Shown here in pieces: positions 13,320 to 30,908 of a stretch of 64,000 nt of DNA (position 1 is its first letter; every line of letters begins with the position of its first letter). The notes beneath the pieces were generated by a model. That model searched no databases, was not told the origin of the DNA, and saw only the letters and a list, made by a program, of their open reading frames with translations. Source of the DNA: a virus (Duplodnaviria; Caudoviricetes); IMG/VR virus record IMGVR_UViG_3300032007_000010. The stretch is one strand, 5' to 3'. Both the position numbers and the translations under genes were made by a program.

Positions 13320-13668
13320 CAAGTTTCATCCCCTCGGCAAATAGTCTGGAATCTAGCTCGATGCACTCGATCTTACCGATGTGTCGAATATGACCATCTA
13401 TGTAATCATAGTCGATGGGACCGGTCATGATTCCTATGGTATGGGCGGGTCGACGGTAGATCAGTTCGAACATCTCCATATGGTACGGTTCCCCGGGGAT
13501 GATATCCTCCATTGCCCACTCGCCCTTGAGGTATCGAACCAACACAATGTTTTCCATGGGAATGGGTTCGAGTCTGTTTCCAAGCCGTTGTTGCTCTACG
13601 TAGATTTTATCGCGAAGAGCTTCGTTGCTGGGATATTGATGCGTCATGACAAATGCTCCTTTCTTCAT
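13312..13668 (-). CDS. Hypothetical protein
   Basis: Probable start MTHQ at 13647 region with AAGGAG SD; overlaps its neighbours. Confidence 0.6.
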   Translation of the reverse strand: MKKGAFVMTHQYPSNEALRDKIYVEQQRLGNRLEPIPMENIVLVRYLKGEWAMEDIIPGEPYHMEMFELIYRRPAHTIGIMTGPIDYDYIDGHIRHIGKIECIELDSRLFAEGMKLDG

Positions 13669-13970
13669 CGAGGAATCAGGACCATGAAACCATCGGCATC
13701 GCGATAGTCTCCGCCCTTCTGCTTCTTGATCTCACCGGATTCGATCTGGGCCTGAACCCGATCACGCCATTTCTTGAGCAGTGGCGTATCAATTCCACCA
13801 TTGATGATGATGGTGAGAATATCCTCGTCCCTCGCATCCTTTCCATAGATCGGAAGTGCAAGCAATGCGGTGATGAGCTCGCGATTGATATCCTTCAGCA
13901 CGAGCTCCGATGTCTTCATTCGATCTTCCTGCTTCTTGGCAATGAGCGCCTTCAGATCAACTGTTCCCAT
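13665..13970 (-). CDS. Hypothetical protein with C-terminal RDADGFMVL motif
   Basis: 101 aa, GGAGG SD. Confidence 0.7.
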   Translation of the reverse strand: MGTVDLKALIAKKQEDRMKTSELVLKDINRELITALLALPIYGKDARDEDILTIIINGGIDTPLLKKWRDRVQAQIESGEIKKQKGGDYRDADGFMVLIPR

Positions 13971-14141
13971 CTACGGTTCCTCCCATAATATGTAATATTT
14001 TTCGTGTATTTGGCCGTCTGGATCAGACAAGCATATGTTCATGCCTGTCATGTCATTGATATAGTATAGAGATGTAAACAGATCATTGAAAAATAAATTC
14101 ATTGGGAAGAATTACCCAGAAGTCAGGATTGAATAACCCCG

Positions 14142-14155
14142 AACATCCCTATAAT
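14142..14155 (+). promoter_or_regulatory. Late promoter AACA-N6-TA
   Basis: AACATCCCTATAAT upstream of the RNAP beta-like gene. Confidence 0.65.
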
Positions 14156-14205
14156 GACATGCGGATGCGAACTTTATTTTCAAAGAAAGGCGGTGGTCTC
14201 GCCCC

Positions 14206-17200
14206 ATGATCAAACTGCAAATGGTGCCCCCATTCAGGGTAAACAGGGTGGTTCCTCCCGTGATCATGCCGGAGAATCCCGGAGATCGTAAAAAGTACCA
14301 AGCTTTCATGGTTCTTGCTCCAAGCCCGGAGCAGGAATTGAATTTTCTTTCGAACAGTTCCTTGCTGCGCTTCAGAAATCTCACGAGATATTTTGTCCCG
14401 AAGCGCTGGAGTCACACCTTCAAGGGACGCGGCGTGGTTGTGTCTAAACCGAATGCAAACGGTGAATACACGGCCCTTTTGAACCAGTATCGAAGAGGAA
14501 ATCTCAGGGGCATCGATGATGTCTCTTCGTTTTTGCCGAGCGCGACAAGTCGAACTCTCATGAAGGGTTACAACCTGCTCCTGGAATGCAATCATGTGAC
14601 CCGTGATATCATGAATAACCCCAAGGATCATCGCCCCATGTATCTGAGGGCCCAGGAAATCTTCGATGAGTGGGTGAAGATCCATGACAGTGCGTCGGTG
14701 AATGGTGGTGATGCGAACTATCTCGGCGCATACAACGTCGACGTGGTCATCCCAATGAATCTCTGGTTCGGGAAGGCTGACTATGCCAATCCGGCGAAGA
14801 TATTCAAGAGGACACCATCGAATACCAACATCATGAGCTATATCATCCAGCTCCTCATAGACCCGATCAACGCCAAACATTTTGGGCGTATCCACTTCAT
14901 CAGCGATGATCTGGTCATGACCTTTGATACGGCGAACTATCCAAACGCCTGGACGAAGAAGGGTAGGATTGAGGAGGAAGCTCACAGTCTCTTTGTGAAA
15001 TTTCTCACAAAGTGCAATGGCAGCATCGATGTCGATGATGAATTGCTTTCCCAGAGTTCGGAGGATGAGGAGCCGAAGACCTTCGATCAGCGCGTGCGCA
15101 TGATCGCCGCCGATCGTCGTGCGAAACAGCTCATGGGAAAGGATCCGGAAGGATCGATGGACGTGACAGATGATGAACCCACTGCGCCGACCATCCCAGT
15201 CCAGAAGAAAACAACTCCAACCTCGGTGTATCAGACACGGGTTAGGCAGCAGGAGCTCCAGCGAGCGCGCGAAGATATCATCGGCCAGCGAAGGGATGAA
15301 TCCCGGGGTCGATACCTCGATGCAAAGACCGATGTGGTCGTCGATACCTTGCTCAAGAAGGTTGGTGCGGATCTCGATGACCAGGAGACGCGCGACGCCG
15401 TCAAGAACGTTGTGCTGAAGAACATCGATGTTGGCAAGGTTCCCATCCAGCGTGATCCGGTGAGTGGGGATCCGGTGGCCATCCTTTCGCATCCTGTCTT
15501 TGATGTGGATCTGCACTCCGCCGAAGACGTGGATGCGCTGCTCGCCGCAAAAACGGCCGGGAATTCTGTGCAATCCAACAAGCGCGACGAGATGCTTCGG
15601 GAGAAGTACAAGGAACTCAACATAGGTGACGTTCCTCTCAAGGATGTGCTCGAACATCAGGCTCAGCTCAAGATCCCGGAGAGCACCATTCCGGCCAGGA
15701 CGGTCAACGAAGACATGAAGACCAACTCATTCAACAACTTCGAGAAGGCCTACATGCAGAATCTCTTTTCGTATGACCTGTCGCGCATCCTCATGCACTT
15801 CAGCCATGTGAACCCGGCAATGTATCTGTACAAAGACATCCAGGTAGAGGATGTTTCCACACCGACGGATCGAATGATCCGTTACACGGTGAACTACGAG
15901 GATACGACCCGCAAACGTCATCGGTTCAGCTTCCTGCTCCCGAAGATGTATAACTACAAGTATCTCTATCTCAATGACCAGAAGATGAATATCAGTCACC
16001 AGAAGCTTCCGTTCCCCGTGACCAAGGTCTCTCCGGATAAGTGTCAGCTTGTTTCCAACTACAACAAGATCTTCACCGAACGCTATGGTGGGAACCTTTC
16101 TCCGCTGATCACCAAGCTCAAGAAGATCTTCGGCGGACCCGAAGCGCCGAATGGTTCCATCGTCACCAAGGGTAACTCCAATCCGCTCAACAAAAACCGA
16201 ATGACAACCATCGAGTATGATGATATCGGATCGATCATCACCCAGATTCGCATGGGCGATCGCCGCAACGATACCACCATATACTTCATCGTGGATGAGG
16301 CGGCGACGGTGATCGATCAGAGCTGGATTGCGAAGGCTCCCGTGCGTGCCGAGATGCGTGAGCACGGCGATACCGCCGATGATTGTTTCCCACTGGCGGT
16401 GCGACATTACCCGAACAAGCAGGTGACCTACTATTTCCTTTCTGGAAGGTCCAATCATGTCTATGCGTGCGGTCCCAATCAGAATGGCGATCCGGCCGGT
16501 GGCGAAGATTGTGGTGAGCTCGCGGAATTTCTGGCGGAGCTGAGCGCCGAAGTTGGCATCATCTCCAGGGAAATGCTGAAGGAGACCACCTCCGGTTCTC
16601 GTTTTGTCTACTCGCGTTCCAAGGCGATGAATCAGTGGATCCCGACGGTTCTGCTCTGTGCGGCGGCCGATCCGGGTGGGCTCACGGCGGTGCTCGAAAA
16701 GGCGCAGATTGAGTTCGAATTCGTGGAGAAGAAACCGACGCTCGGCGACGAGAAGGCCTGCATCGCCTTCGCGGATGGTTATCTGGTATATAACCGGTAT
16801 CCCTACGAGAATTCGTTGCTCCTCAACGGTCTCAACACGTTCCCCACGAAGAACTACTCGTTCTACGATATGGACACCTTCGATGCCTACGTGCAGATCT
16901 TTGACACTATGTTTGGTGCCAGATATCTCAACGAAGGTCTCCGTAATTTCTACTATCTTTTCGTGGATCCCATCACCGAGGATATCCTGGCGCGTCTCAA
17001 GATGCCAACGGATTTTACCAGACTCATGCTCTATTGCAATGATGTCCTCGCGGACAACCATTACCAGATCGACAGCGATTATCACAACAGTCGCATACGC
17101 TCCAACGAGATCATCCTCGCGCATCTCTACTACGAGCTTGCGAGTGCCTGGGGCAAATATCGCACCGGTCGCGCCGAATCTTTCTCGATCCCCGAAAACT

Positions 17201-18765
17201 GTGTGATTAAGTATCTGCTCACGGCCAACATCGTGGATCCGCATTCCGAGCTCAATATTGTGCTCGAGCTCGAGAATGATCGCCTCGTGAAGCTCAAGGG
17301 TCCGTCCGGCATGAATGAGGATCATTCTTTCACCATCGAGAAGCGCGCCTATCATCCCTCCATGAAGGGTGTGGTTGGCATGAACTCGGTTCCGTCGGGC
17401 GAGGTTGGAATCGGTAGACATATGGTGATAAATCCCAATGTGGTGGATGCTCGCGGTTTCATGGATCTGGATAAGAAAGATTATTCCGGTTCCCAGATGG
17501 TAACTCCCGGAGAGGCCATGCAGGTTTTCAGTCCAGAGTCTTCGGATATTGAGCGTCTGGCCATGGCCATCTCCCAGACCAAGCACGTGGTACCTGTTGT
17601 CGACACCGGATCCTGCCCAATCTCGTATGACATGGAGCGTGTGATCCCGTACTACTCCAACGATTTTGCTCGCACCGCAGAAAAGGATGGGACCGTGGTG
17701 TCCATCTCCAACGAGATTTTGATCATCAGGTATGATGATGGAACCATCGAGGATGTGGATCTCTCCAAGAGACCTGCCAAGAACACTGATGGTGGATTTT
17801 TCGTGATGAACCAGATGATAACCAGACTCAAACCCGGAGACAAGGTCACCAAGGGTCAGCTCATCGCCTGGGATCCGAAATACATCAACGAAAAGGATAT
17901 GTTCCATGATCCGCTCGCCAACCTCGGAACCATGGCAAGGGTTGCGGTCGAGACAAACGGTGGTGTCTTCGAGGATTCCTGCTTCATCACAAACAAGTTC
18001 GCACATCGCATCGCCACAAAGATCACACGCCAAAAGAGAGTCATCCTCTCCAAGTATGCGAATGTTAAACACATGGTGAAGCTTGGGCAGGATATCGGAG
18101 CCAATGAGGCGCTGCTGACCTTCGATGACACCGAGGATGCGTTCACCTCGCAGATGCTCGCGGCCATGGCCGATGAGGCGGGGGATGAGGACGAGGTCAT
18201 CGCCACCAACGCTCCGGTTATTTCCAAGATATCCGGAAAGGTTGTGGATATCCAGATCTTCTACACCGCTGACCCCAACGAGATGACACCGTCGCTGCGT
18301 GCGGTGATCGAAGACTATGCAAAACGGGTGGCCAAGCGCGAAAACAGTCTCGAGAAGTACACTTCCACGCTGGATTCGAAAACCATCATTCATCCCTCCG
18401 AGCGATTGATCCCCGATTCCAATGGAAAGGTCAAGGGTGTGAAACTCCCCGATGGAATCATGATCGACTTCTACATCGAATATGAAGATGTGGCCTCGGC
18501 CGGTGATAAGGTTTCCTTCCATAGTGCCATGAAGGGTATCATCTCCAATATCATCCCGGACGAGCTAGCACCCTATCCGATCGATGATCCCGAGCATCCG
18601 ATCGAGCTCGATGTGTCCTGTATCGGCATCTACAAAAGAATGCTGAACGATGTGATCAAGCTCGGTCTGACCTGCAACCTGGTCATCGATAAAAAATATC
18701 AGCTCCGGGACAAGTATGGTTCTCGGATCAAGGAAGAACTCGCAAAATACAGAAACGCAAAATGA
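14206..18765 (+). CDS. Multisubunit RNA polymerase beta-like subunit (probably virion RNAP, phiKZ gp178-like)
   Basis: 1519 aa; beta motifs KGPSGMN..KRAYHPS, PSGEVGIGRHM, RLAMAISQTKH, FEDSCFI, GDKVSFHSAMKGIIS; long N-terminal extension; late promoter. Confidence 0.9.
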   Translation: MIKLQMVPPFRVNRVVPPVIMPENPGDRKKYQAFMVLAPSPEQELNFLSNSSLLRFRNLTRYFVPKRWSHTFKGRGVVVSKPNANGEYTALLNQYRRGNLRGIDDVSSFLPSATSRTLMKGYNLLLECNHVTRDIMNNPKDHRPMYLRAQEIFDEWVKIHDSASVNGGDANYLGAYNVDVVIPMNLWFGKADYANPAKIFKRTPSNTNIMSYIIQLLIDPINAKHFGRIHFISDDLVMTFDTANYPNAWTKKGRIEEEAHSLFVKFLTKCNGSIDVDDELLSQSSEDEEPKTFDQRVRMIAADRRAKQLMGKDPEGSMDVTDDEPTAPTIPVQKKTTPTSVYQTRVRQQELQRAREDIIGQRRDESRGRYLDAKTDVVVDTLLKKVGADLDDQETRDAVKNVVLKNIDVGKVPIQRDPVSGDPVAILSHPVFDVDLHSAEDVDALLAAKTAGNSVQSNKRDEMLREKYKELNIGDVPLKDVLEHQAQLKIPESTIPARTVNEDMKTNSFNNFEKAYMQNLFSYDLSRILMHFSHVNPAMYLYKDIQVEDVSTPTDRMIRYTVNYEDTTRKRHRFSFLLPKMYNYKYLYLNDQKMNISHQKLPFPVTKVSPDKCQLVSNYNKIFTERYGGNLSPLITKLKKIFGGPEAPNGSIVTKGNSNPLNKNRMTTIEYDDIGSIITQIRMGDRRNDTTIYFIVDEAATVIDQSWIAKAPVRAEMREHGDTADDCFPLAVRHYPNKQVTYYFLSGRSNHVYACGPNQNGDPAGGEDCGELAEFLAELSAEVGIISREMLKETTSGSRFVYSRSKAMNQWIPTVLLCAAADPGGLTAVLEKAQIEFEFVEKKPTLGDEKACIAFADGYLVYNRYPYENSLLLNGLNTFPTKNYSFYDMDTFDAYVQIFDTMFGARYLNEGLRNFYYLFVDPITEDILARLKMPTDFTRLMLYCNDVLADNHYQIDSDYHNSRIRSNEIILAHLYYELASAWGKYRTGRAESFSIPENCVIKYLLTANIVDPHSELNIVLELENDRLVKLKGPSGMNEDHSFTIEKRAYHPSMKGVVGMNSVPSGEVGIGRHMVINPNVVDARGFMDLDKKDYSGSQMVTPGEAMQVFSPESSDIERLAMAISQTKHVVPVVDTGSCPISYDMERVIPYYSNDFARTAEKDGTVVSISNEILIIRYDDGTIEDVDLSKRPAKNTDGGFFVMNQMITRLKPGDKVTKGQLIAWDPKYINEKDMFHDPLANLGTMARVAVETNGGVFEDSCFITNKFAHRIATKITRQKRVILSKYANVKHMVKLGQDIGANEALLTFDDTEDAFTSQMLAAMADEAGDEDEVIATNAPVISKISGKVVDIQIFYTADPNEMTPSLRAVIEDYAKRVAKRENSLEKYTSTLDSKTIIHPSERLIPDSNGKVKGVKLPDGIMIDFYIEYEDVASAGDKVSFHSAMKGIISNIIPDELAPYPIDDPEHPIELDVSCIGIYKRMLNDVIKLGLTCNLVIDKKYQLRDKYGSRIKEELAKYRNAK

Positions 18766-18770
18766 TAAAA

Positions 18771-18800
18771 AGAAACCCCTCCATGATCGGAGGGGTTTCT
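18771..18800. terminator. Bidirectional terminator hairpin
   Basis: agaaacccctccatgatcggaggggtttct between convergent genes. Confidence 0.7.
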
Positions 18801-18819
18801 TCTCTGCATTGTGTTCCGT

Positions 18820-19167
18820 TCATTGATGCGACTTCTGGTAGTCATTCCAGAGCCGCTCGAACATGGTCATCGGATTTACCACCAAGAAATTCGCAGTCTC
18901 CGACTCCATGCGCTGATGTTTTTCGAAGACACGACCCGCGATGGATATCGTACAGTATCTGAAATACCACTGTTCCCGCATCCACTCATGACGACTCATC
19001 TTCTCACCGACATCGCCGTAGAGGTGATCATAGTCCTCACTGTACTCATCGTAGAGTTCGGAGAGCTTGTCGAATCGGCGCTGCCACTTTCTGAGAGTAC
19101 TCTCGACGAGGTTCTTGCGGATGGCATCCATGTTCGCCCTGCGATCTTTCACTGTTTTCTTTGACAT
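18820..19167 (-). CDS. Hypothetical protein (early-promoter driven)
   Basis: 115 aa, AAGGGG SD, early motif at 19203..19227. Confidence 0.65.
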   Translation of the reverse strand: MSKKTVKDRRANMDAIRKNLVESTLRKWQRRFDKLSELYDEYSEDYDHLYGDVGEKMSRHEWMREQWYFRYCTISIAGRVFEKHQRMESETANFLVVNPMTMFERLWNDYQKSHQ

Positions 19168-19254
19168 GACGTTTATCCCCTTTCTGAAATCATAGCATTG
19201 TCTGCTTCCTTCACAGCTATGATATATGATTCCGGAGGCAGATAAAACCAGAAA

Positions 19255-19953
19255 TCAGATCAATTCCTTGAACTCGAAGTATCTGAGCACCTCGTTGAGA
19301 TCGCCCTTGAAGGCCATGCTCGATCCGTCCTCGAACATGACCATGGTCTTGACCTTGCACTCGAATATGCTGTAGCAACAGCACGCCGCCTGGATCTCCA
19401 TCACTCCATCGATGAGCTGGCGATAGTAGTTGATGAAGTGCATGAGCTCACCGATGGTGCTGATGTCTTCGACAAGATCATACACGGTATACAGGTCTTC
19501 GTCACCATCGTAGGATGCGTCCATGCGATATTTGATCGACATCTTTTCTATGGTGGCAAGACGAAGGTAGGTGTTGATCGGAATTTTGGTATAGATACCA
19601 CCGATGCCACTCTGGATAAGAATCATCGCATCCTTGTGCTTTTCGGAGAATTTTTCGAGCTTTGAGTGCATCATGCGGGTGTTGAACGGTTTGAGCTTTT
19701 CTCCGTTCGCCGAAATGAGATAGTTCTCGGATTTGAGAAAATGGAACTCTTGAATTCGGCGATTGTCGATCTTGCGCTTCTTCAGCCGCTTGAAGAGTTC
19801 GTGCTTCCAGCCGCCCTTCTTGTACGGGTTGCCCTTCTGGTGTTTGTTCTTTTCCTTCTGTCTGTCTTCTTTTTCGACGCGTTTCCTATCCTCTGGTGTG
19901 CGCTTGATGAGCGTGTAGAATCCGTCGGAATCTCTGTACTTATCCTTGGCCAT
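19255..19953 (-). CDS. Hypothetical protein with N-terminal RDSDGFYTL motif and basic N-terminal region
   Basis: 232 aa, AAGGAG SD. Confidence 0.7.
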   Translation of the reverse strand: MAKDKYRDSDGFYTLIKRTPEDRKRVEKEDRQKEKNKHQKGNPYKKGGWKHELFKRLKKRKIDNRRIQEFHFLKSENYLISANGEKLKPFNTRMMHSKLEKFSEKHKDAMILIQSGIGGIYTKIPINTYLRLATIEKMSIKYRMDASYDGDEDLYTVYDLVEDISTIGELMHFINYYRQLIDGVMEIQAACCCYSIFECKVKTMVMFEDGSSMAFKGDLNEVLRYFEFKELI

Positions 19954-20599
19954 GTCTTTTCTCCTTCATGTATTGCAGTGCATCAAAATAGGATCTGCTG
20001 TGCTGTTGCGTGGAATTCCTGGCATGGAGATATGCCGCATAGTCATCGATGATTCGATATATCTCTTCCCAGCTGTGGGCTCGGATGACCGTGGATGTGG
20101 GTCCCTTATCTATGTCGGAGGACCGGTTGTGTGGCATATCTGGCATGATCCCAAGATAGTCACCGAGGAGATTGTGTGGACCATCGTCAACCATGACATC
20201 GCACCGAAGCAACGATTTGTTCCAGATATTCATGATGTTGCGCTCGTTCACGAATGGGAAAAGTTTCAGGAACATATCATAGACCTTGGCATGCCAGCTG
20301 ACATGCTCGGCCGCGGTTGCGAAGTAGATCTCGTGGCCATCGTCCATGAGTCTTCGCAGATATATGTCCGCTTCGGGGACCATCTCCACACCCTTCCAGA
20401 ATCCCGGACGACGGAGGGGTTCGATGATCTCATCGTAGCTATGTCCCGGAAATACCTCAGACAATTCCCAGCTGGTCCAGTCCTCGACGGTCATATCGAG
20501 TCCAAACATGCGATTGGTGTGTGCCACCCAGGCCCTGGTGAGCTGTTCGACCGTGTCGTCCATGTCGACACAGACTATCAGTTTTCTGCGATCTTTCAT
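19940..20599 (-). CDS. 5'(3')-deoxyribonucleotidase (NT5C, HAD family)
   Basis: DMDDT motif I, FATA motif II, K..L..DVMVDDGPHN motif, PHNR. Confidence 0.9.
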   Translation of the reverse strand: MKDRRKLIVCVDMDDTVEQLTRAWVAHTNRMFGLDMTVEDWTSWELSEVFPGHSYDEIIEPLRRPGFWKGVEMVPEADIYLRRLMDDGHEIYFATAAEHVSWHAKVYDMFLKLFPFVNERNIMNIWNKSLLRCDVMVDDGPHNLLGDYLGIMPDMPHNRSSDIDKGPTSTVIRAHSWEEIYRIIDDYAAYLHARNSTQQHSRSYFDALQYMKEKRHGQG

Positions 20600-21330
20600 T
20601 GTCCACCTCCCAAATTCATCAACACACGCAAACTACCATCAACGCTCATGTACCGATCCAGCACCACAAACCCGTCATCGTCGCGGTTCGCCGGAAAGCT
20701 CGCGATGGATAGATTGGCTCCGCCGTGTCTTTTCCGCTCCTTGTCCCACCACAGATACACACGCGCATTGTATATTCTGTTACCCACCGGGAAATCTCTG
20801 ATACCCTTCGGGTCGAGCTTCAGCTTGCCATATCCCGGGAGACGTATGTGCCCATTGCCGAACACCTGTGATTCGATGTCATAGGTGGAGCGGATGTGCA
20901 TGTATGGATATTTGAGGTTGTAGATTCTCCAGAGCTTATGATCATACAGGCTCCAGCGAATCTTCTCGATGGTATCAAAGCGCTCGAGATGATGCTGCAC
21001 ATACTTTTTCATGTGGACCATCATGCTCTCGCCGAATTCCAGATGATCGATGAGCATGGTCTTGGACATGTTCTCCGTCACATGCTCATCAAGGAAGTAG
21101 AACCCGAGGTTGTCCCAGGCCTCGTTCCCATACTCCCGAGCCCGTTTGCATTTTCGACTGCGCAGCGTGCGAATTATGTTTCCCTCCATGTAGTTGGCAT
21201 AGATCTGGTCGTAGGCACGCTGGAGTTCGCCGAGATCATCGAGCTCGCGGTCGTCCAGCTCGATGGCGATGGAATGGTAGGTCAGTGATCTATAATTTTT
21301 ATGGTCATTGCCGTGACGCATAATACTCAC
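20596..21330 (-). CDS. Possible TnpB-derived protein (REC/WED-like part only, no RuvC)
   Basis: GNGHIRLPGYGKLKL..RIYNARVYL..LSIA resembles TnpB 'kikLPKlGwvk..kyyNpRis..ylSv'; no GxDxG RuvC-I or zinc finger follows. Confidence 0.4.
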   Translation of the reverse strand: MSIMRHGNDHKNYRSLTYHSIAIELDDRELDDLGELQRAYDQIYANYMEGNIIRTLRSRKCKRAREYGNEAWDNLGFYFLDEHVTENMSKTMLIDHLEFGESMMVHMKKYVQHHLERFDTIEKIRWSLYDHKLWRIYNLKYPYMHIRSTYDIESQVFGNGHIRLPGYGKLKLDPKGIRDFPVGNRIYNARVYLWWDKERKRHGGANLSIASFPANRDDDGFVVLDRYMSVDGSLRVLMNLGGGQ

Positions 21331-21429
21331 TCCGTTCGTTGTCGATTATTATACTGTAATCGACCCTGTACTTTTCGAAAATATTTTTCATCAAAATTTC
21401 GTATTTATATTATTAAATAAAATGATCAG

Positions 21430-21660: not shown

Positions 21661-21685
21661 GAAATAATGCGCGGCGAAATCTGCC

Positions 21686-23115: not shown

Positions 23116-23281
23116 TTTTATACGGATCGATCAAACAATCATATACCGCTACTCTCGGAAGACCATGGGACCCATTTTCCACGGGGCCTCATGGTCTTTT
23201 CTCATTTCCCGATGAACTATATACTATAGAGTCGATATGAAGATTCGGACACAGATAAGAAAAGAAGGGAAGTGACCATTC

Positions 23282-23944
23282 ATGGTTCCGGATTACATCA
23301 TAGCAACGGATGGAAGCGCGAGACCAAATCCGGCCGGTGGCTACTTCACCGGCTATGCATTTGTCATCATGAACTATCACAGCGCACAGTTCATGACACA
23401 CAGTGGACCGCTGGGCGACAGTCCCATCGCCTATGCGGAGGCCTGGGCCCTGTACCAGGCCATACGACAACTCAACGTGGTTGTCGATAATACATACGAG
23501 GAGGATCGAGAGAAATATCGCAAGCGCGGTGTGAACCTGCTCGCGATCACCGACTCAAAGCTCCTGGTGGATACCTTCAACGCATGGATACCCTATGCCT
23601 GGGATACGAGTGATTATTATCATTGGAAGAAGGCCGATGGATCCGAGGTGAAAAACCAGGATGTGTTCCGATACACCATCAAGGCGATGGAGCGTCATCG
23701 GATCAACATGCGCATCGTGCACATCAATTCACATGTGCACGACAAGGCGCTGCGTAATCATATCATCGCGAAGATGAAGCGAAACATGGTGCGCATGGAT
23801 AACTGGACCGCGGATGAGCTCATTCGCATGAATCAGCGCGCGGATGACCTGGCCCAGGAGGTCACCGCGAAGCTCATCGATCGAAATCTCGATACTCTGC
23901 GATTGAGCAGTGACGCCAAAAATCGGAGGTGGAAAGCCACATGA
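23282..23944 (+). CDS. rnhA: Ribonuclease HI
   Basis: TDGS, AEAWAL, ITDS, VKNQD, HINSH, NQRADDLA catalytic motifs. Confidence 0.9.
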   Translation: MVPDYIIATDGSARPNPAGGYFTGYAFVIMNYHSAQFMTHSGPLGDSPIAYAEAWALYQAIRQLNVVVDNTYEEDREKYRKRGVNLLAITDSKLLVDTFNAWIPYAWDTSDYYHWKKADGSEVKNQDVFRYTIKAMERHRINMRIVHINSHVHDKALRNHIIAKMKRNMVRMDNWTADELIRMNQRADDLAQEVTAKLIDRNLDTLRLSSDAKNRRWKAT

Positions 23945-25434
23945 CCGGACATGAAAAGATCATGCAGCTCCGGAAAGAGCTCGATATTCCAGAGCGTGAT
24001 GAATCGGACTACGATGCACGCGATCGTGCCGAGATGAGGGCGAGGGCTGCGCGCATCGAACAGGCGGCGACGCAGGAGGAGTATGTGAAACTCTTCAACA
24101 GATCCTACTGGGATGATCGTTGGCTTGGTGCGCCGGAGGATGATCCGGGATTGCTCTCGACGGTTCCGTTCGTGGAGGCAAAACCAATGAGCAAAAAAGA
24201 GCGAAAACAAGAAGTTGAGAAGGCCCGCCGCGAATGGCGGGCCAAGTATGTCCCGAAGCTCAAGACCATACATCTCGACGCGGAGGAGAAGGAATCCAAG
24301 ACTGTGCGGAAGTTGCGCAGGAAGCGCAGACGTGCCGAGGAACAGCGCGAGTGGCAGAAGAAGATCGATGTGTCCTACTGGTTCCTCGAGCATTGGTGCA
24401 CACCGTTCTATGCGTGGGAGGTCACACGTGAGCACGGATCCAGCACCGAGGAACTCGTGAACTGGTGCTATGACTTCGTGAGTTCCTGGGCCGAGGAAAT
24501 GACCGGCAATCGGGTGCTCAGCGTTGAGGAGGGCTACGAGCGTCTACAGGCTCGGATGCGCGATGCCAGAGACATCGTCGAGGACATTGATGGGATGAAG
24601 TTCAGGCGACTCGAGGTTGCGGAGAAGCGGAGAAAATCCTATGTCTGCGACCCGATGGAAGATCCCTTCCCCGACATTCCCGATGAATATTGGGAGGAAT
24701 TCCTCGCCTGGTCCAAGGAACACAAGCTGAAGAAATTCAAGAAGGAAGCGGAGCGCTATGCGTACTACGGCAAATATCTTGTCTCACCGGAGGGACTTCA
24801 GCGCTGTGCATTCCTGAAGTTCATCAACAAACGCAACAAGACCTGGCGAAACAATCTCATGCTGCATGACCCGATGACCGGTGCATCGTTTGTTTCGGAG
24901 AAACAGATGAAGAAGCACATACATCGACAGCTGCGGAGCTACGACAAGCGTCGCAAGCAATTCGTAGAGATGCTGGATGATCTCGTGGCACGTGGGCAGC
25001 TTTCCCAGGATTATGCGGATCACATGATGGGTGACACGAAGCTCACCCGCGATCGCATCCGCGAGCGCTGGAAGCAGGACTACGAAAGACTCAAGCTCCA
25101 TCAGAAGGAGGAGAAGAAGCGCTACAAGAAACAGAAGGAATCCTACAATGCCCGAAAGAAGTGGTTCGAGAAGTATGGCGGCAACATCGCCCAGGCTCCG
25201 TTCACCATCACCACCGAGGGTGGCGATCGGATAAGCGTGGAGCTCATGGGAAATGATCCGAAACATCCGATCTATAAGATCGATGATCAGGCGCTCGGAT
25301 CGACGAGCTATTCGGAGGGATCGTTGGCGACGGCGCTCGACATCGGTGCTGAACCTGAGCCACCGCGCAAACTCGAGAAACCACACTTTGGTGATGACTA
25401 CTGGGAAGAGTATGCCAGGCTGCCAAATTATTGA
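23941..25434 (+). CDS. Hypothetical highly charged helical protein
   Basis: ~497 aa, GGAGG SD, overlaps the rnhA stop codon. Confidence 0.75.
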   Translation: MTGHEKIMQLRKELDIPERDESDYDARDRAEMRARAARIEQAATQEEYVKLFNRSYWDDRWLGAPEDDPGLLSTVPFVEAKPMSKKERKQEVEKARREWRAKYVPKLKTIHLDAEEKESKTVRKLRRKRRRAEEQREWQKKIDVSYWFLEHWCTPFYAWEVTREHGSSTEELVNWCYDFVSSWAEEMTGNRVLSVEEGYERLQARMRDARDIVEDIDGMKFRRLEVAEKRRKSYVCDPMEDPFPDIPDEYWEEFLAWSKEHKLKKFKKEAERYAYYGKYLVSPEGLQRCAFLKFINKRNKTWRNNLMLHDPMTGASFVSEKQMKKHIHRQLRSYDKRRKQFVEMLDDLVARGQLSQDYADHMMGDTKLTRDRIRERWKQDYERLKLHQKEEKKRYKKQKESYNARKKWFEKYGGNIAQAPFTITTEGGDRISVELMGNDPKHPIYKIDDQALGSTSYSEGSLATALDIGAEPEPPRKLEKPHFGDDYWEEYARLPNY

Positions 25435-25488
25435 GCTTCGGCATGGGATATATATTATAATCGCGAGGAATGATCACAAAGGAGTGAT

Positions 25489-28395
25489 TTGATGAGCAAG
25501 AAACATAATCACAAAGAAAGGAAGGAGGAATCCAATAGGACTAAATTTTCAAAGATTCTAACCCCCGAGCAGAAGGAGAACTTCAGATCGTTCGGGGAAC
25601 CGAATATGGATCAGAACTGGTTGGAGCTGTTCACGGGAACCGTCATGGAGGATCTCAGGACCATCATGGGATCCTGCAGCGACAATCAGCGCAAGGCCGA
25701 GTATGTGGAGCGGGAGCTCGCAGACTACGGTTTCTATGCGGTTGGGTTGGGGACCAACATTCTGACCATGGCCAATCCGGCCTATCCCGGCGTCGTCTTC
25801 AAGATCGCTCTGGACGATTTCGGGGTTGCAGATAACTTCAACGATGTTGAGCTATCGAAGTTTGTCCCCAGATACAATCGTGTCTTTGCGAGAGATCCAT
25901 CGGCGATGGTTTCGGTTCAGGAACGTCTGGTGCTGCCAACGCATCATCAGATGGAGATGTTTGAGCCGCAGATCATCGCCACGTTGAGAGATCTCAGCAA
26001 GTATTTCCTGGTCGCAGATCTCAGCCCCGATAACTATCTAAACTACGGGGTAACCAGAGATGGAGACTTTCGCTACATCGATGGTTCGGATCTGTATCCT
26101 CTGAGTCAGCTTCGGCACGAGCCTCGCTGCAATCGCATCGTCGGAGAACATAAGCACTCCGGCAAGTTCAAATACTGCGACGGCAAACTGCGCTACAACG
26201 GAGACTACTCGAGGATGATCTGCCAGTCCTGCGGCAAGGAATTCATACCGCTGGAGTTCAGACCAAGAAAGGACGTGAATCGAATGTATCAGGCACTGAG
26301 TGATGGACTGACCGCCGAGGAGCGCAAGGAGCTTGAGAGGGCCGAGCTTGGCTCGACGGTCGAACGAGAGGAGGACAATGACAGATACCGTCTCGGCAAT
26401 GAGGAGATTGCCGAGATGATGGCGGGGATGCATGAGAAGACCCGCAACATATTTGCGAACCGTGGTGAGATCGAGGAATATCGGAACGATATGGACGACG
26501 AGGACGAAGACGAGGAAGTCCATGTGATCCGTCCGAGATCGCGCTGGGATGAGGGCACATCCACGGACAACGCAAACGATGGGGATGTCGAAGATGATCA
26601 TCTCAACGACGAAATGTCGGATGATGCGTCCGATGATCAAGAGGAATCTGAGTTTGAGAATCCCACCTTTGTGGTGAACGAAGATGACGATTCCGAACAT
26701 CCCGTGCATACCGACGAGGACCACGAAGACGACCGCGATTCGGAAGGTTTCTTCGTGCTTCGGCCTCGTCAAGCTCCGCTGCCCACACTGAACGATCCTG
26801 ACCCGGCCGAAGACGGGGAAGACGAGGATCGTGTGGGCCCGCAGGTGAACCTGACCCAGGACGAGGAGGACAGGTCCGAGAATGCGGAGGCTGCCGAAGA
26901 ATCCATCTCCGACGATATTCGCATGAGCGATGAGTATCGATCTCTCAAGGAGAAGATTCTGCGTGCCGAGGGTGCCGTCGAGGAAGGAGACGGTGATGGG
27001 CACGACACGGCCACAGAGGTCCCCGGGGAGGATAGCCCCGTGACCACGGCGATGGGTGATGATTCCCATGGGCCGGGCACAGAAACCGTCTCCACGTTGG
27101 TTGAGGAGGCGTCGGCATTGTCACAGGAGGATGCCGGGTTTACCCTCAGCGGGGACCCGGAGATAGCCCAGTTCCAGAAACTGGTGGCCATCCTCAAGGA
27201 GCGGCAGGGGATCAGCTCCGGTGACCGAGCCGTGTATCGTGGTCTGTTGAAATATGTTCGAGGTGCTAAGCTTCGTGCGGTGCAAAACTTCGTGGATGAT
27301 GCGAAGGTATACTTTACCGGCTCCGACGATGGACATGACATTTCTGAGCTCGAACATGCGCAGTTCGATCAAGTAGGAGAATATGTGACATCTTCTCCGA
27401 AGTTCGATGCGAACCGCGCCGACAATTCCGAGGAACTCAAGTCTCTCCACGGGATCATCGAACGGCAAGGCCACATCAATGAATCGCTCTTGAATGAGCT
27501 AACCGAGAGAGAAAAGCATGTTGTTGAGCTGGAGCACGATCTCGAAGAGCTCCGGTCCGCGGTGGCGAATGACAACGATCCCACCGAGGATGACAAGGAT
27601 GTCCGGATTGCGAATCTCACCGAAAGGTTGACCGGTCTCACCGCCGAGCTGCAGACGGCGCGTGACAGTCTGGATACATATCTTGATCAGTTGACAAAGA
27701 TGCAGGAAGCGCATGACGCGGAGCTCGAGTCTGTTCGCGCAGACGCCGAGGCCCGGCTCGCTTCCCTCCAAACCACCAATGATGCGCTGCGGAGCGAACT
27801 CGACGAAACGCGGAGGTCCGCGGTCAATGTGGATGAGCTCCTCCGGAAGAATGCCGGCTATGAGCTGATGATTCAGCAGCAGCGCAAGGAGAATGAATCT
27901 CTCAAACAGAAGATCGCACAGAATGCCAAGATGCTCAACGAGGCATCGGATTCCGTCGGAGACGATGATTATGACCAGCTCTTCCGGGAGAAGAAGAGTC
28001 TCGAGCTCGAGGTCGAGGAACTTCGTGCCAAGGTCTCCGACAATGATGCGGTCGATACGTTGACCAAGGAGCTCGAAGAGCTTCGTGTTAAAAATGATCT
28101 GGCCAACAAGGTAATATCGGGCGAATCCGAAGAGGATGCACGTCCTGATCGAGCCCACTATCATGTGATCAATGATACGGGCCTCGACATTCCCGGAGGC
28201 TCTGGCCTCTATCCCGGAATCTATGTGGATATCCGTGGTGACTTTGATGCCGCCATGAAAGAGTCCGGTCTCAGCGTCTTTGTGGGTCTGGGTGATCAGA
28301 AGACCTACTACAAAGCGGTGGACTATCACGACATGCTCGACGATCTCAGGGAAACCCATGCCGAACTCGTCGAGGATATCCGGGGCAGGGAATGA
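25489..28395 (+). CDS. Protein-kinase-like domain + Zn ribbon + acidic linker + coiled coil
   Basis: GLGTN Gly-loop, VFKIALD Lys, ADLSPDNYLNYG catalytic loop, IDGSD; Cys pairs including CQSC; D/E-rich disordered middle; heptad-rich C-terminus. Confidence 0.65.
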   Translation: MMSKKHNHKERKEESNRTKFSKILTPEQKENFRSFGEPNMDQNWLELFTGTVMEDLRTIMGSCSDNQRKAEYVERELADYGFYAVGLGTNILTMANPAYPGVVFKIALDDFGVADNFNDVELSKFVPRYNRVFARDPSAMVSVQERLVLPTHHQMEMFEPQIIATLRDLSKYFLVADLSPDNYLNYGVTRDGDFRYIDGSDLYPLSQLRHEPRCNRIVGEHKHSGKFKYCDGKLRYNGDYSRMICQSCGKEFIPLEFRPRKDVNRMYQALSDGLTAEERKELERAELGSTVEREEDNDRYRLGNEEIAEMMAGMHEKTRNIFANRGEIEEYRNDMDDEDEDEEVHVIRPRSRWDEGTSTDNANDGDVEDDHLNDEMSDDASDDQEESEFENPTFVVNEDDDSEHPVHTDEDHEDDRDSEGFFVLRPRQAPLPTLNDPDPAEDGEDEDRVGPQVNLTQDEEDRSENAEAAEESISDDIRMSDEYRSLKEKILRAEGAVEEGDGDGHDTATEVPGEDSPVTTAMGDDSHGPGTETVSTLVEEASALSQEDAGFTLSGDPEIAQFQKLVAILKERQGISSGDRAVYRGLLKYVRGAKLRAVQNFVDDAKVYFTGSDDGHDISELEHAQFDQVGEYVTSSPKFDANRADNSEELKSLHGIIERQGHINESLLNELTEREKHVVELEHDLEELRSAVANDNDPTEDDKDVRIANLTERLTGLTAELQTARDSLDTYLDQLTKMQEAHDAELESVRADAEARLASLQTTNDALRSELDETRRSAVNVDELLRKNAGYELMIQQQRKENESLKQKIAQNAKMLNEASDSVGDDDYDQLFREKKSLELEVEELRAKVSDNDAVDTLTKELEELRVKNDLANKVISGESEEDARPDRAHYHVINDTGLDIPGGSGLYPGIYVDIRGDFDAAMKESGLSVFVGLGDQKTYYKAVDYHDMLDDLRETHAELVEDIRGRE

Positions 28396-28490
28396 CCATC
28401 AACTCATCCAGCGATGCCGGATGGGCTTTTCAAAAATGAAGGGCCCATCCACAATTCTATAATACCACAAATCAATAGGAGGATTACATC

Positions 28491-29678
28491 ATGGTATTTG
28501 TTCTGGAAGAACGCTATGCGCGCATGATCTTCAAGAAGTACCACAAGAATGTGGTGGCCTTCGGTCTCAACGGATCCAAGGGTTTCGTCGAGGACGAGAT
28601 GAAGGTTCCCTATCAGCGCCTTGCATGCATGCCCGACCTCGATGAGATCAACGGCGTCGTCGCCGGCCAGATCAAGGGCAAGAAGATCATCAGCAATGCC
28701 CTCAAGGCCCTGCACAAGCCCAGCATGGAGACCGCCGAGATTGGCATCACCATGGCTCAGCTCGTGAACATCATCTCCCCCGAGCACCGCGGTGCGAAGA
28801 AGGAGAAGAAGTATCGCAAGAATGGCCCCAACATCCTCGTCTTCGTGCTCGAGGACAACCTGAGCAAGAAGGATCGCAAGGCCGGCGGCGTGGAGGCCAA
28901 GGCCCACTCCAAGATGATCGAGAGGAAGAACGATTTCCTGACCAAGTACATCGGCGAGCTCTTCGCCGCCTTCGGTGTGCACATCATCGCCGACCCGAAG
29001 GTCGTGAAGAAGATCTTCGACACCAAGAAGAAGAAGGTCCCCGGCCGTGTGGCCGAGTTCATGCAGGACAACGACGAGGTTCGCATCGACGATGACGGCA
29101 TGAATCTCAAGCGGATCCTCTTCGCCTACTATGCGGTGGAGATCAACCAGAGTTCGCTCTCGGGGCTCCAGGGTGCCAACATCCAGCTCTCGAGCAAGTC
29201 CATCGAGAATCTGGCCATGGCGCTGGTGAAGATCTATACCAACAACAATCTGGCGGCGCTGCGCTATCTCAAGAAGAAGGATCTCAAGAAGATGGCAAAG
29301 CGCTTCAAGAAGAAGAACGAAGAGGCGGTCGAGGCCTACGAATCCTTCTCCGATCTCATCGAGGCGGTGCTTCCCGATCAGAAGCTGCCCGTGGTGAAGC
29401 TCGGCTACTCCAAGAAGGAGCGCAAGAAGGAGGATGGTAAGCCCAAGATGAAGGTGAAGAAGTTCATGAAGTTCTTCACCAAGCGCAGCAAGAAGACCAA
29501 CAACTGGTCCATGCTCATCATGCTCTATGCGCACACCGCCGCCCTCGCCACCGGCAACAACATCGGCGACAGCGCCTACAACAAGCAGCTCTCGGCCACC
29601 ATTGGCCGTCTGGAGATGCCCGACGGTTTCTCCAAGGCATTCGTGAGCGCTGCCAAGGCCTACGGCAAAGGCGAATAA
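28491..29678 (+). CDS. Lys-rich, probably highly expressed late/virion protein
   Basis: 395 aa, AGGAGG SD, CACAATTCTATAAT late-type promoter at 28450..28463, strong codon bias. Confidence 0.75.
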   Translation: MVFVLEERYARMIFKKYHKNVVAFGLNGSKGFVEDEMKVPYQRLACMPDLDEINGVVAGQIKGKKIISNALKALHKPSMETAEIGITMAQLVNIISPEHRGAKKEKKYRKNGPNILVFVLEDNLSKKDRKAGGVEAKAHSKMIERKNDFLTKYIGELFAAFGVHIIADPKVVKKIFDTKKKKVPGRVAEFMQDNDEVRIDDDGMNLKRILFAYYAVEINQSSLSGLQGANIQLSSKSIENLAMALVKIYTNNNLAALRYLKKKDLKKMAKRFKKKNEEAVEAYESFSDLIEAVLPDQKLPVVKLGYSKKERKKEDGKPKMKVKKFMKFFTKRSKKTNNWSMLIMLYAHTAALATGNNIGDSAYNKQLSATIGRLEMPDGFSKAFVSAAKAYGKGE

Positions 29679-29691
29679 GCTGTGAAAGCGA

Positions 29692-29724
29692 AGAACGGGA
29701 CCGTGGATGGTCCCGTTCTTTTTC
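29692..29724 (+). terminator. Intrinsic terminator
   Basis: agaacgggaccgtggatggtcccgttctttttt. Confidence 0.75.
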
Positions 29725-29742
29725 ATCAAGAAAGGAGAAATC

Positions 29743-30075
29743 ATGGCATCGGTGAAGATGTATCCGGTCTACAAATGTGAGATCTGTGACCGTTTCTTCT
29801 ATCGTCCTGATAAGGTGTTAGAGATTGCTGATGACGTTAATTTTCATATGGATTCGCTGAAGCATAATATCGAATCAAATCACGATACACATCACCGCTC
29901 CAAGGGTAATGGTATACATCTGATGAAGCTTGTGGGACTGCTGACCGAGAAGGACCATGAGCGCGACGCTAGGTCTTGTGAGATCCTAGATCAGGTGGAT
30001 AGTATTACCAAAGGATATGCTGTGCCAAGAATAGAATTGCCGGGTGGTTGGATAGAATGGCCGAGAACGAAGTAA
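29743..30075 (+). CDS. Small Zn-finger-like hypothetical protein
   Basis: MASVKMY..CEIC..H..H, AAGGAG SD. Confidence 0.6.
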   Translation: MASVKMYPVYKCEICDRFFYRPDKVLEIADDVNFHMDSLKHNIESNHDTHHRSKGNGIHLMKLVGLLTEKDHERDARSCEILDQVDSITKGYAVPRIELPGGWIEWPRTK

Positions 30076-30908
30076 GAACGGACGGTCTCGAACGAGACTC
30101 CGAAGGGTTCATCATATTGAGGAGGAGGTATTCTGAGCTCTACAAGAAAACCAACTACACCTCGTCGGTGGACAGGGTTCAGAATCGAATCTATGAGTAT
30201 GACCTGCATTCCGCAAACGTATCCGCGTTGAGGGCCACGGGCAAGTTTGATGAGCGCATGCTGGATATCCTTGAAAACTCCGAGAAGCAGGTCCGCGAGG
30301 AAGCCGTCGGCAAGATGATTCGCCGCGACAAGACCAAAACTATCTACGGATATATCTCCCGCGGAATCCAACGAGCCAAGGAGCAGCTCTTTCGTTTCAA
30401 TGGCATCAAGGATGATGAGGTCTTGACCATCAAAAACGATGCGGTCTTCGTGATCGGAAGAAAGCTTCAGCACACGACGTTCGGACCCTACGAGTTTCGA
30501 CTCAAGAATGTCTATGCGGGATACATCCGCATCGACAAGATCGAGATCTACTATGACAAGAAACACAAAAGCATCACGATCAAGGGAGTAAGCGACATGG
30601 TCGTCGAACACCCCGATCACCAGTCCGGCATGCTTTGTTTCTTTCTGCAGGTGTTCCGATACCTCGACCTGGATCAGGTCCAGGATCTGCGAGACTATCT
30701 GATTCGCTTTGCCCGCGATTACAAGGCACTGAAGCTTCCTCATCAGTACTATCGTGAACTGAATTCGAACAACATATACCGAACCAAGATAGAACTGGCC
30801 GGATTCGAGTACAATCTGACCGAGATCGGTCCGGATGACATGGATATGATAAACCCCATCTACAACTATCGACGGTTTGTGTTACCTCTGATTCAACAAT
30901 TCATGTGA
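30048..30908 (+). CDS. Divergent minimal family-B DNA polymerase-like protein
   Basis: YEYDLHSANVS (motif A-like) and TIKNDAVF (motif C-like); N-terminal RDSEGFIIL motif. Confidence 0.55.
   Translation: MDRMAENEVRTDGLERDSEGFIILRRRYSELYKKTNYTSSVDRVQNRIYEYDLHSANVSALRATGKFDERMLDILENSEKQVREEAVGKMIRRDKTKTIYGYISRGIQRAKEQLFRFNGIKDDEVLTIKNDAVFVIGRKLQHTTFGPYEFRLKNVYAGYIRIDKIEIYYDKKHKSITIKGVSDMVVEHPDHQSGMLCFFLQVFRYLDLDQVQDLRDYLIRFARDYKALKLPHQYYRELNSNNIYRTKIELAGFEYNLTEIGPDDMDMINPIYNYRRFVLPLIQQFM

Follow-up and report, generated by a model that had tools for sequence, protein, structure and literature searches.

The locus described here, from an uncultured gut/rumen jumbo phage, raises the question of what one 12-residue peptide, R-D-x-D/E-G-F-h-h-L-x-P/K-R, is doing on about 16 otherwise unrelated proteins. 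An earlier note on this DNA, made from the window (the whole stretch analysed, 64,000 nucleotides), had described five copies and proposed that they are a binding tag for a common partner. We found no published description of the tag in the literature.

Results

Six-frame translation of the window gives exactly five matches to RD[SAD][DE]GF..L (Table 1), and the five reported copies all proved to be where the earlier note had placed them, each in the named ORF and at the position described for it in the protein. The observation is confirmed, but five is an undercount: the 287.7-kb whole genome holds 10 strict copies, and a motif profile detects 18 copies on 16 ORFs, at 12.5-24.8 bits against a maximum of 6.0 bits in the reversed-sequence control. 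The best score, 24.8 bits, belongs to YRDADGFMVLIPR. The called proteome contains 8 strict and 15 loose matches, and the six frames of the genome 10 strict and 17 loose. By comparison, 200 residue shuffles of the proteome average 0.005 matches to the strict and 0.025 to the loose pattern, and 0.002 per proteome would be expected analytically. With an enrichment over shuffles of about 1000-fold or more, a chance origin of the copies is excluded. A frequency table of 40 copies reads R-D-x-[DE]-G-F-h-[VI]-L-x-[PRK]-[RKT], without a conserved Q and with P, R or K at position +6 in 39 of the 40; the fuller consensus is [Y]-R-D-x-[DE]-G-F-h-[VI]-L-x-[PKR]-[RKT].

Table 1. Tag copies, their genes and neighbouring genes in the window.
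Feature	Position	Strand	Remarks
Clade-specific 162-aa protein, HU/IHF-like fold	12834..13322	-	AF2 pLDDT 94.6
Gene, small clade-specific 101-aa protein, always tagged	13665..13970	-	orthologs G001 61%, G003 49% identity
Tag copy YRDADGFMVLIPR	13668..13706	-	extreme C-terminus, residues 89-101 of 101; regex core 13677-13703
Virion RNAP beta-N gene (AR9 g189 ortholog)	14206..18765	+	untagged negative control; tblastn 29% identity, E 6e-55
Gene, 232-aa basic orphan with N-terminal tag	19255..19953	-	identity G001 35%, G003 34%
Tag copy YRDSDGFYTLIKRT	19897..19938	-	residues ~6-19 of 232; 21.3 bits; regex core 19909-19935
Gene, 244-aa orphan	20596..21330	-	overlaps longer + strand ORF
Tag-like copy NRDDDGFVVLDRYM	20647..20688	-	near C-terminus, residues 215-228 of 244; 19.2 bits; regex core 20659-20685
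RNase H gene, untagged here	23282..23944	+	PF00075
Gene, 968-aa protein	25489..28395	+	N-domain ~290 aa, tagged linker, coiled-coil-like C-half
Tag copy DRDSEGFFVLRPRQ	26731..26772	+	acidic, Pro-rich linker, residues 415-428 of 968; 21.5 bits; regex core 26734-26760
Gene, 286-aa homolog of AR9 hypothetical g239	30048..30908	+	tblastn AR9 205242-205865, 33%, E 1e-19
Tag copy ERDSEGFIILRRRY	30090..30131	+	residues 15-28 of 286; 21.9 bits; regex core 30093-30119

Within the tag, synonymous codons vary freely (six for Arg, four for Gly and four for Leu), and the mean nucleotide identity among tag cores is 60%. When the tag is masked and the 16 carriers are aligned pairwise, no pair is found at E<0.3. 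Since synonymous codons are interchanged freely and the carriers resemble one another in nothing but the tag, selection is at the level of the peptide and not of a DNA repeat, on both counts as the earlier note had argued from five copies. Its proposed preference for termini and disordered linkers is borne out as well, since 14 of the 18 copies are no more than 60 residues from a terminus, a placement that random positioning matched in 2 of 10,000 trials, and the flanks contain 61.5% disorder-promoting residues compared with 52% in the background. The flanks are acidic upstream of the tag and basic downstream.

In orthologs that are 30-75% identical, the tag is retained at the same site while its flanks diverge; their genomes have GC contents of 37%, 41% and 51%. 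In some orthologs the full motif has decayed and the core F-h-x-L-x-[PK]-[RK] persists; position +3 accepts charged residues. The relatives G001 to G003 carry 16, 19 and 13 tags, and none was found in AR9 or in the 16 genomes of more distant relatives, which are mostly near-complete. Single proteins gain and lose the tag: the G001 reverse transcriptase has two copies, and RNase H, untagged here, is tagged only in G001 (NRKGFITMIPKQ) and G003 (TGEFIRLIPKG), in both cases on the C-tail, which indicates turnover. The sister genomes G011 and G009 lack the tag, and there the C-tail of DnaB carries a different conserved peptide, E-x-LFDF-x-S, at that position, suggesting that this tail is a lineage-specific docking tail.

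Among the carriers in the window, the 101-aa protein bears the tag at its C-terminal end in 18 of 18 aligned homologs, with the RD, GF, VL and PR columns invariant. It has no match in Pfam or PHROG, tblastn does not find its gene in the tagless relatives (G011, G009 and AR9), and its AF2 model (mean pLDDT 55) shows helices and, over YRD/FMV, a weak hairpin. The 232-aa protein, likewise without a family match in Pfam or PHROG, has orthologs whose N-tails read RDEEGFIQLIPK in G001 and, as a core, DEFFTLVPRK in G003. More atypical is NRDDDGFVVLDRYM, as it lacks the basic [PK][RK] end. It is identical in the homolog P0146 (71% identity), within a fully conserved stretch that is possibly folded, and because this homolog keeps the peptide the ORF is real despite its overlap. 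The 244-aa protein, putatively TnpB-like according to the earlier note, has no match in Pfam, PHROG or PDB sequences and no ortholog in either G001 or G003. The copy in the 968-aa protein is kept in the linker of the G001 ortholog as DRDAEGFTVLKPKT. The N-domain of this protein is 59% identical in G001, 49% in G003 and 25% in the tagless relatives; a kinase-like nature is a weak lead, the kinase families being sub-threshold language-model neighbours only (0.87-0.88). Orthologs of the 286-aa protein bear degenerate tags at the same site, SEGFIELKRTY and RQGFYKLKRTY. The earlier note had called this protein polB-like, a label that we reject: it is a homolog of AR9 g239 and belongs to PHROG 21037 (function unknown; E 1e-38), and the two real PolB subunits are encoded elsewhere and are untagged.

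Across the genome, with identities assigned by Pfam, PHROGs and AR9 mapping, the identified carriers are GyrA, NAD-ligase (LigA, tagged at the N-terminus), DnaB, an SF2 helicase (ResIII), the non-virion RNAP beta-N, a PC4-like ssDNA binder, a DGR reverse transcriptase (RVT_1) and Avd, in addition to orphan proteins. The RNAP subunit is the ortholog of the non-virion g105 of AR9 and has three tag copies in this genome, forming a multivalent tail. One tagged subunit per complex is usual, GyrA and not GyrB, RNAP beta-N and not the other RNAP subunits. The profile search found no tag in the virion RNAP beta-N of the window, and the virion RNAP (four pieces), the capsid and tail proteins and indeed every ortholog of an AR9 virion protein lack it as well. 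The absence from structural proteins remarked on in the earlier note thus holds. Also untagged are both PolB subunits (in this genome, G000, and in G001 and G003), primase, UvsX, SbcCD and nucleotide-metabolism enzymes such as NT5C. The phage further encodes PPK1 and a GroEL-like chaperonin (PF00118; PHROG 'chaperonin groEL'), with no match to the Cpn10 Pfam model; no AAA+ unfoldase lies above the Pfam cut-off.

Discussion

We show here that the tag is under peptide-level selection, conserved in position, near termini, on nucleic-acid enzymes only and in one clade only. Selection on the peptide, termini and disorder-like flanks, conservation in orthologs with diverging flanks and absence from structural proteins together mark it as a short linear docking or address motif. 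Tentatively, and with a confidence that stops a little short of even, we favour a docking tag on non-virion nucleic-acid machinery, all copies of which would be read by one shared, putative receptor. In such a scheme, the clade would have grafted the tag onto flexible N- or C-terminal extensions or linkers of this machinery, and all tags would be bound by a single receptor pocket; we infer both that the partner is a protein and that it is the same one throughout. The tagged helicases, gyrase, ligase, RNase H, ssDNA binder, middle/late RNAP and DGR RT/Avd would thereby be concentrated at the replicating phage DNA, in the manner of a clamp- or SSB-like 'toolbelt', and the three to four tandem copies of the RNAP tail might add avidity. 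Docking through peptide tails has precedents in phage replication and transcription, namely the T4 gp45 clients and the T7 gp4 and gp2.5 tails.

Several observations weaken the docking reading. The prime clients of a clamp hub (both PolB subunits, primase, UvsX and SbcCD) are untagged, and no match was found in the genome to PF00705 (PCNA_N) or PF00712 (beta-clamp), Pfam models that a divergent clamp could escape, or to the OB-fold SSB Pfam model. In addition, the basic end is missing from NRDDDGFVVLDRYM, around which the 244-aa protein is fully conserved and possibly folded, and the conserved [PK]-[RK] end would fit a protease site equally well.

An address label, that is, an import or retention signal for a chimallin-independent replication compartment or condensate, would be read by a shell, pore or scaffold instead of the replisome. 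The tagged and untagged sets do correspond to what the chimallivirus nucleus takes in and keeps out (2026 review): as with PicA/Imp1-6, helicase, ligase, topoisomerase and nvRNAP are selected and structural and metabolic proteins omitted. Flexible terminal placement with one tag per complex would also suit such a label, and a clade-specific tag is what a clade-specific structure would be expected to have. Encapsulin and microcompartment cargo peptides are similar in layout, being short peptides on a variable linker, at either end of several unrelated enzymes, and they define membership of a common structure. However, the carriers here are nucleic-acid enzymes and not metabolic cargo, and the tag is predicted, at low confidence, to form a strand or hairpin, whereas those peptides are amphipathic helices. 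Furthermore, chimallivirus import recognises its cargo by patches on the folded surface, not by linear signals at the termini (2026 review), whereas a linear terminal peptide is precisely what the carriers here have in common. PolB, primase and UvsX would need piggy-back entry, PBS1-type phages are described as chimallin-less, no compartment is known for this group, and a single-sequence phiKZ gp54 (chimallin) query and one tubulin Pfam model (PF00091) had no match in the genome, which is a weak negative. We regard an address label as rather unlikely. Packaging is a related idea, given that HK97-fold shells read short peptides shared by unrelated cargo at their termini, both as capsid targeting sequences and as encapsulin cargo-loading peptides. 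Yet a signal that loads proteins into the head is extremely improbable, because the carriers are not virion proteins: no tag occurs on any ortholog of an AR9 virion protein, the four virion-RNAP pieces among them, and the RNAP subunit that does bear tags is the non-virion one.

Were the tag a processing or turnover signal, a protease or unfoldase adaptor of phage or host would cut the tails back or set when early and middle enzymes are degraded. The h-L-x-[PKR]-[RK] end looks like positions P4-P1 of a site for Arg-specific proteases, the 101-aa protein terminates exactly at ...IPR, and degrons typically sit at termini. Nevertheless, we consider this improbable, as it would be unusual for a cleavage site to have its invariant residues (D, G and F) 6-10 positions ahead of the presumed cut, cutting at the tandem RNAP copies and the internal linker copy would fragment proteins to no purpose, and an AAA+ unfoldase was not found above the Pfam cut-off. 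The chances seem equally slim for an autonomous beta-hairpin 'sticker' that pairs with itself, nucleic acid or polyphosphate and so brings about co-assembly without a dedicated receptor. [DE]-G favours a type I' turn, which beta-branched residues flank here, and in the AF2 model of the 101-aa protein YRD and FMV form short strands (pLDDT ~64-75); the multivalent RNAP tail, the opposite charges of the two flanks and the phage PPK1 also agree with it. The model is, however, of low confidence, and with one copy on most carriers the tag is poorly suited to building a network. Finally, the tag could mimic the GroES mobile loop and tether clients to the GroEL-like chaperonin of the phage, whose binding is putative. 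The G-F-[IVM]-[VI]-L of the tag resembles the G-G-I-V-L of that loop, and the chaperonin gene is present without a Cpn10 match; but AR9 has a chaperonin and no tags, charged residues are tolerated at +3 in orthologs, and why nucleic-acid enzymes alone should be tagged is left unexplained. We consider this recruitment very improbable.

Among the closest parallels to the docking reading are the clamp client motifs (the PIP box Qxx[LIM]xx[FY][FY], the bacterial QL[SD]LF and the gp45-binding C-termini of gp43, gp33 and gp55 in T4/RB69). These, too, are short hydrophobic peptides at disordered termini of many unrelated replication and repair proteins (and, in T4, also of transcription proteins), read by one hub and with tandem copies possible, and eukaryotic Lig1, like the ligase here, carries its motif at the N-terminus. 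In contrast to Qxx[LIM]xx[FY][FY] and QL[SD]LF / QLxLxL, however, the tag has no Q and follows the pattern D-x-[DE]-G-F-h-h-L-x-P-R, and DNA polymerase, the archetypal clamp client, is untagged in the phage. In this last respect it is nearer to the C-tails of the T7 gp4 helicase-primase and gp2.5 SSB, acidic peptides with an aromatic residue that bind gp5 polymerase, since here also the helicase and an ssDNA binder are tagged and the polymerase is not. Unlike the T7 tails, the tag is found on about 16 carriers, also at N-termini and in linkers, with a hydrophobic core, a basic end and a Phe that is not C-terminal. It differs as well from the SSB C-terminal tail hub (DDDIPF type), in which the motif is on SSB and the pockets are on its partners, whereas the PC4-like protein is just one of the roughly 16 tagged proteins.

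Several proteins are candidates for the receptor of the docking tag. One is the ~245-aa clade-conserved product of a gene translationally coupled to PolB-N (G000 68093-68833, minus strand), which has no Pfam or PDB sequence match; others are the untagged split PolB itself, the clade-specific conserved unknowns (genome numbering 16186-17136, 31912-32646, 76132-77337 and 163710-164390), a conserved host protein, and the HU-like 162-aa protein of the window. Without exception, the top structural hits of the latter are HU/IHF/Hbb proteins, although weak ones (VIA Z 4.2-5.0; for Foldseek, a probability of 0.6-0.85); the Atlas rows, too, are all HU families. Its gene is syntenic with the 101-aa tagged gene in G000, G001 and G003.

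Copies of the tag and the proteins that carry it

The window covers bases 211,914-275,913 of a 287,660-bp record with a GC content of 51%, and the tag is a 12-residue peptide, R-D-x-D/E-G-F-h-h-L-x-P/K-R. Five copies of the strict pattern RD[SAD][DE]GF..L had been reported in an earlier note, and a search of all six frames of the window recovered exactly five, in agreement as to both coordinates and ORFs. In the whole source genome, which encodes roughly 300 proteins, the strict pattern occurs 10 times, and a looser pattern together with a profile built from the copies yields 18 copies in 16 ORFs, with scores of 12.5-24.8 bits. The profile reached a maximum of 6.0 bits on the reversed proteome, and the residue-shuffled proteome averaged 0.005 strict and 0.025 loose matches. 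The codons of the conserved residues vary freely, which bears out the proposal that the peptide rather than a DNA repeat is maintained, and no pair of carriers could be aligned at E<0.3 once the tag was masked, as expected of proteins said to have nothing else in common. Chance and a DNA repeat are thus both ruled out by the shuffles, the reversed-sequence control, the codon variation and the masking.

D, G, F and L are invariant in an alignment of the copies, and 40 copies from three genomes give the consensus [Y]-R-D-x-[DE]-G-F-[IVMLFY]-[VIL]-L-x-[PRK]-[RKT]. Most copies (14 of 18) are no more than 60 residues away from a terminus, a placement matched in 2 of 10,000 trials when positions were drawn at random in the same proteins. 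Disorder-promoting residues are enriched in the flanks of the tag (61.5% versus 52%), which are also more acidic before the tag and more basic after it. For the 101-aa protein, a small clade-specific carrier, the AF2 model has a mean pLDDT of 55 and is too poor for a fold search; its short strands on YRD and FMV hint at a hairpin around the [DE]-G turn. A 336-aa protein encoded outside the window ends in the tag-like YDKCGFRVLIPR, with Cys replacing the acidic residue, and this end scored only 4.4 bits in the profile search, under the control maximum.

The carriers were identified from matches in Pfam, in PHROGs and, by tblastn, in the annotated genome of AR9, a tagless named relative. The tag is located in the N-tails of GyrA, the NAD-dependent ligase and an SF2/ResIII helicase, and in the C-tails of a DnaB-like helicase and a PC4-like ssDNA-binding protein. 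The non-virion RNAP beta-N, ortholog of AR9 g105, carries three copies and one further, degenerate copy in a ~110-aa C-tail that is absent from AR9. Both the DGR reverse transcriptase and Avd are tagged, as are seven orphan proteins and a 286-aa protein. The last of these had been labelled polB-like, which is wrong: it is a homolog of the AR9 hypothetical protein g239, and both real PolB subunits are untagged. The 244-aa gene described as TnpB-like is a real gene, and the kinase-like label of the 968-aa protein found only sub-threshold support from a language model. PDB sequence searches with the 968-, 244- and 286-aa proteins returned nothing useful. The tag is also absent from the primase, UvsX, SbcCD, RecD, GyrB, RusA and the other non-virion RNAP subunits. 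The earlier note was correct in seeing no copy among structural proteins, since all virion-RNAP pieces, capsid, terminase, portal, sheath and tail proteins lack it.

Conservation and turnover among relatives

Among named phages, the closest are Bacillus phages AR9 and PBS1 and the Staphylococcus jumbo phages, whose DnaB is ~29% identical; phages of these types have been described as having two multisubunit RNA polymerases and lacking chimallin. The close relatives are uncultured contigs (230-260 kb) from IMG/VR and from gut or rumen assemblies; for a few of their proteins, public records give the label Muribaculaceae, Duncaniella or Ruminococcus MAG. Two of these relatives, G001 and G003, whose proteins are 45-75% identical to those of this phage, have widely different GC contents (37% and 41%, respectively, versus 51% here). 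In G001 the GyrB and PolB-C matches span only about half the query length, a sign that these genes may be split by introns, inteins or homing elements.

The profile matched 16, 19 and 13 copies in the near-complete relatives G001, G002 and G003, and 4-5 in smaller fragments. As predicted for a selected peptide, the tag is kept at the same position in orthologs of 27-76% identity while the flanks diverge; this holds for DnaB, ligase, RNAP beta-N, reverse transcriptase, Avd, the PC4-like protein and the 101-, 437- and 968-aa proteins. The tag of the 101-aa protein stays at the extreme C-terminus in all 18 homologs aligned, and the RD, GF, VL and PR columns are invariant. Where orthologs have lost the full motif, a core F-h-x-L-x-[PK]-[RK] persists, as in GyrA (EFITLKPIPGG), the SF2 helicase (TFYQLVPKK) and a 232-aa protein. 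Such core-only tags occur in G003, and in the DnaB tail of another relative, G004, the F is replaced by Y. The tags also turn over: RNase H has none in this phage and is tagged in G001 and G003, and the reverse transcriptase of G001 has two copies.

No copies were found in AR9 or in 16 more distant relatives (PolB-C 24-30% identity; at least 90% complete in 13 cases). Two of these tagless genomes, the sisters G009 and G011, have a different conserved peptide, E-x-LFDF-x-S, in the C-tail of DnaB. A role for LFDF as an alternative tag across those proteomes was rejected, as it occurs on the DnaB tail only. A UvsX-like recombinase of this phage has a conserved acidic-hydrophobic tail, MDMDD[MIL]F-x-x-[LM], which recalls the D-x-F-x-x-L core of the tag without its Gly and basic end and, judged by sequence, may be a second, related tail motif.

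Coordinates of features in the window and in the whole source genome (G000)
Feature	Coordinates	Strand
HU/IHF-like 162-aa protein, candidate receptor	window 12834-13322	-
101-aa tagged protein	window 13665-13970	-
Virion-RNAP beta-N, 1519 aa	window 14206-18765	+
Antisense ORF, 502 aa	window 14149-15657	-
Antisense ORF, 931 aa	window 15727-18522	-
NT5C-type 5'(3')-deoxyribonucleotidase	window 19940-20599	-
RNase H	window 23282-23944	
UvsX-like recombinase	G000 19772-21217, outside window	
~245-aa gene, candidate receptor	G000 68093-68833, outside window	-
2033-aa SNF2/GNAT protein	G000 84744-90845, outside window	
336-aa protein	G000 100258-101268, outside window	
Polyphosphate kinase 1	G000 139331-141274, outside window	
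GroEL-like chaperonin	G000 169386-171317, outside window	

Search for a receptor

Pfam models for tubulin, PCNA_N, beta-clamp, OB-fold SSB and Cpn10 found no match in the phage, nor did a phiKZ chimallin query; the clamp result agrees with the published view that this phage group is without a classical clamp. AAA matches were all sub-threshold, one of them within a 2033-aa protein. In this protein an SNF2/ResIII helicase core is joined to a P-loop segment and a GNAT acetyltransferase domain. When ~45 conserved untagged proteins were searched against Pfam and PHROGs for a peptide-binding domain, the matches were to RNAP subunits, virion proteins, RusA, resolvase and PPK1, or there were none. 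UvsX was considered as a BRC-like (G-F-x-x-A) hub; with a conserved acidic tail itself, it resembles a client rather than a reader. Complex prediction with PolB-C, two PC4-like cores and the DnaB tail scored 0.00, which counts neither for nor against binding.

Conserved, untagged, clade-specific proteins of no known function were listed as receptor candidates by comparing the proteome with those of two tagless relatives and AR9. One is a 162-aa protein whose gene is syntenic with that of the always-tagged 101-aa protein, at a distance of one or two genes, in G000, G001 and G003. Its AF2 model (pLDDT 94.6) has an extra helical insertion, and its best structural matches are all HU/IHF/Hbb DNA-bending proteins, consistent in three structure searches but weak (Z 4.2-5.0). 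Another is a ~245-aa gene translationally coupled to PolB-N, whose stop it overlaps in G000, G001 and G003. Searches of Pfam, PHROGs and PDB sequences found no match for it; the same position is occupied by 216-244 aa genes in G009 and G011, weak counterparts by position, and by a 'DnaQ-like exonuclease' in AR9. Its product could be a processivity or clamp-like factor.

Interpretation of the tag

The tag is most likely a short linear docking or address motif for a common putative receptor, because its counts, context and conservation match the properties of such motifs. In this role it would bring the phage's non-virion machinery for DNA and RNA to a hub located at the replicating genome. The main rival is an address label by which the whole non-virion machinery for replication, transcription and the DGR would be sorted into a chimallin-independent compartment or condensate, with a clade-specific reader co-evolving and sister lineages using another tag-reader pair; it would be the first linear 'nuclear-localisation-like' signal in a bacteriophage. 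In its favour, the tagged and untagged sets resemble those that enter, or are kept out of, the nucleus of chimalliviruses; against it, the polymerase lacks the tag and the searches detected no shell. We regard this explanation as rather improbable.

Another rival, suggested by the [PK]-[RK] end of the tag, is a cleavage or degron signal, and a self-associating hairpin sticker is one more. The tag might also mimic the GroES loop for a chaperonin of the phage's own, whose GroEL-like gene matches PF00118 and the PHROG 'chaperonin groEL', while the Cpn10 model finds no co-chaperonin in the genome. Packaging into the virion is unlikely, because it is the non-virion RNAP that is tagged and the virion RNAP that is not.

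Returning to docking, we place the tag among short-linear-motif docking systems, and our literature searches on jumbo phages found no published description of it. What is unusual is its breadth within one phage proteome, RNAP and DGR included. If one receptor reads the tag, it defines the interaction hub of an entire clade of uncultured jumbo phages from gut and rumen, which possess multisubunit RNA polymerases and lack a recognisable sliding clamp. The tag then offers a sequence-only route to listing the clients of this hub, including the seven orphans and, unexpectedly, the DGR reverse transcriptase and Avd, and makes the organisation of replication and transcription in such clamp-less phages a directly testable question. 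Lineage-specific tag-reader pairs could add to the incompatibility of co-infecting phages, and a portable 12-residue tag that draws proteins to phage DNA or a compartment would be a useful tool.

Other features of the genome

Two ORFs lie antisense to the virion-RNAP beta-N gene and look like shadows, because the plus-strand gene matches AR9 g189. At ~12.5-14 kb of the window, the minus strand carries the conserved genes, although the longest ORFs are found on the plus strand. Outside the window, the phage encodes a full-length polyphosphate kinase 1 (PP_kinase N, middle, C1 and C2 domains; E 1e-62), which the clade and the tagless relatives have conserved. An NT5C-type deoxyribonucleotidase gene is situated between two tagged genes. 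AR9 is a uracil-DNA phage. Because it also annotates a 5'(3')-deoxyribonucleotidase (g151), likened to the NT5C gene by annotation, the present clade may modify its thymidine pool as well.
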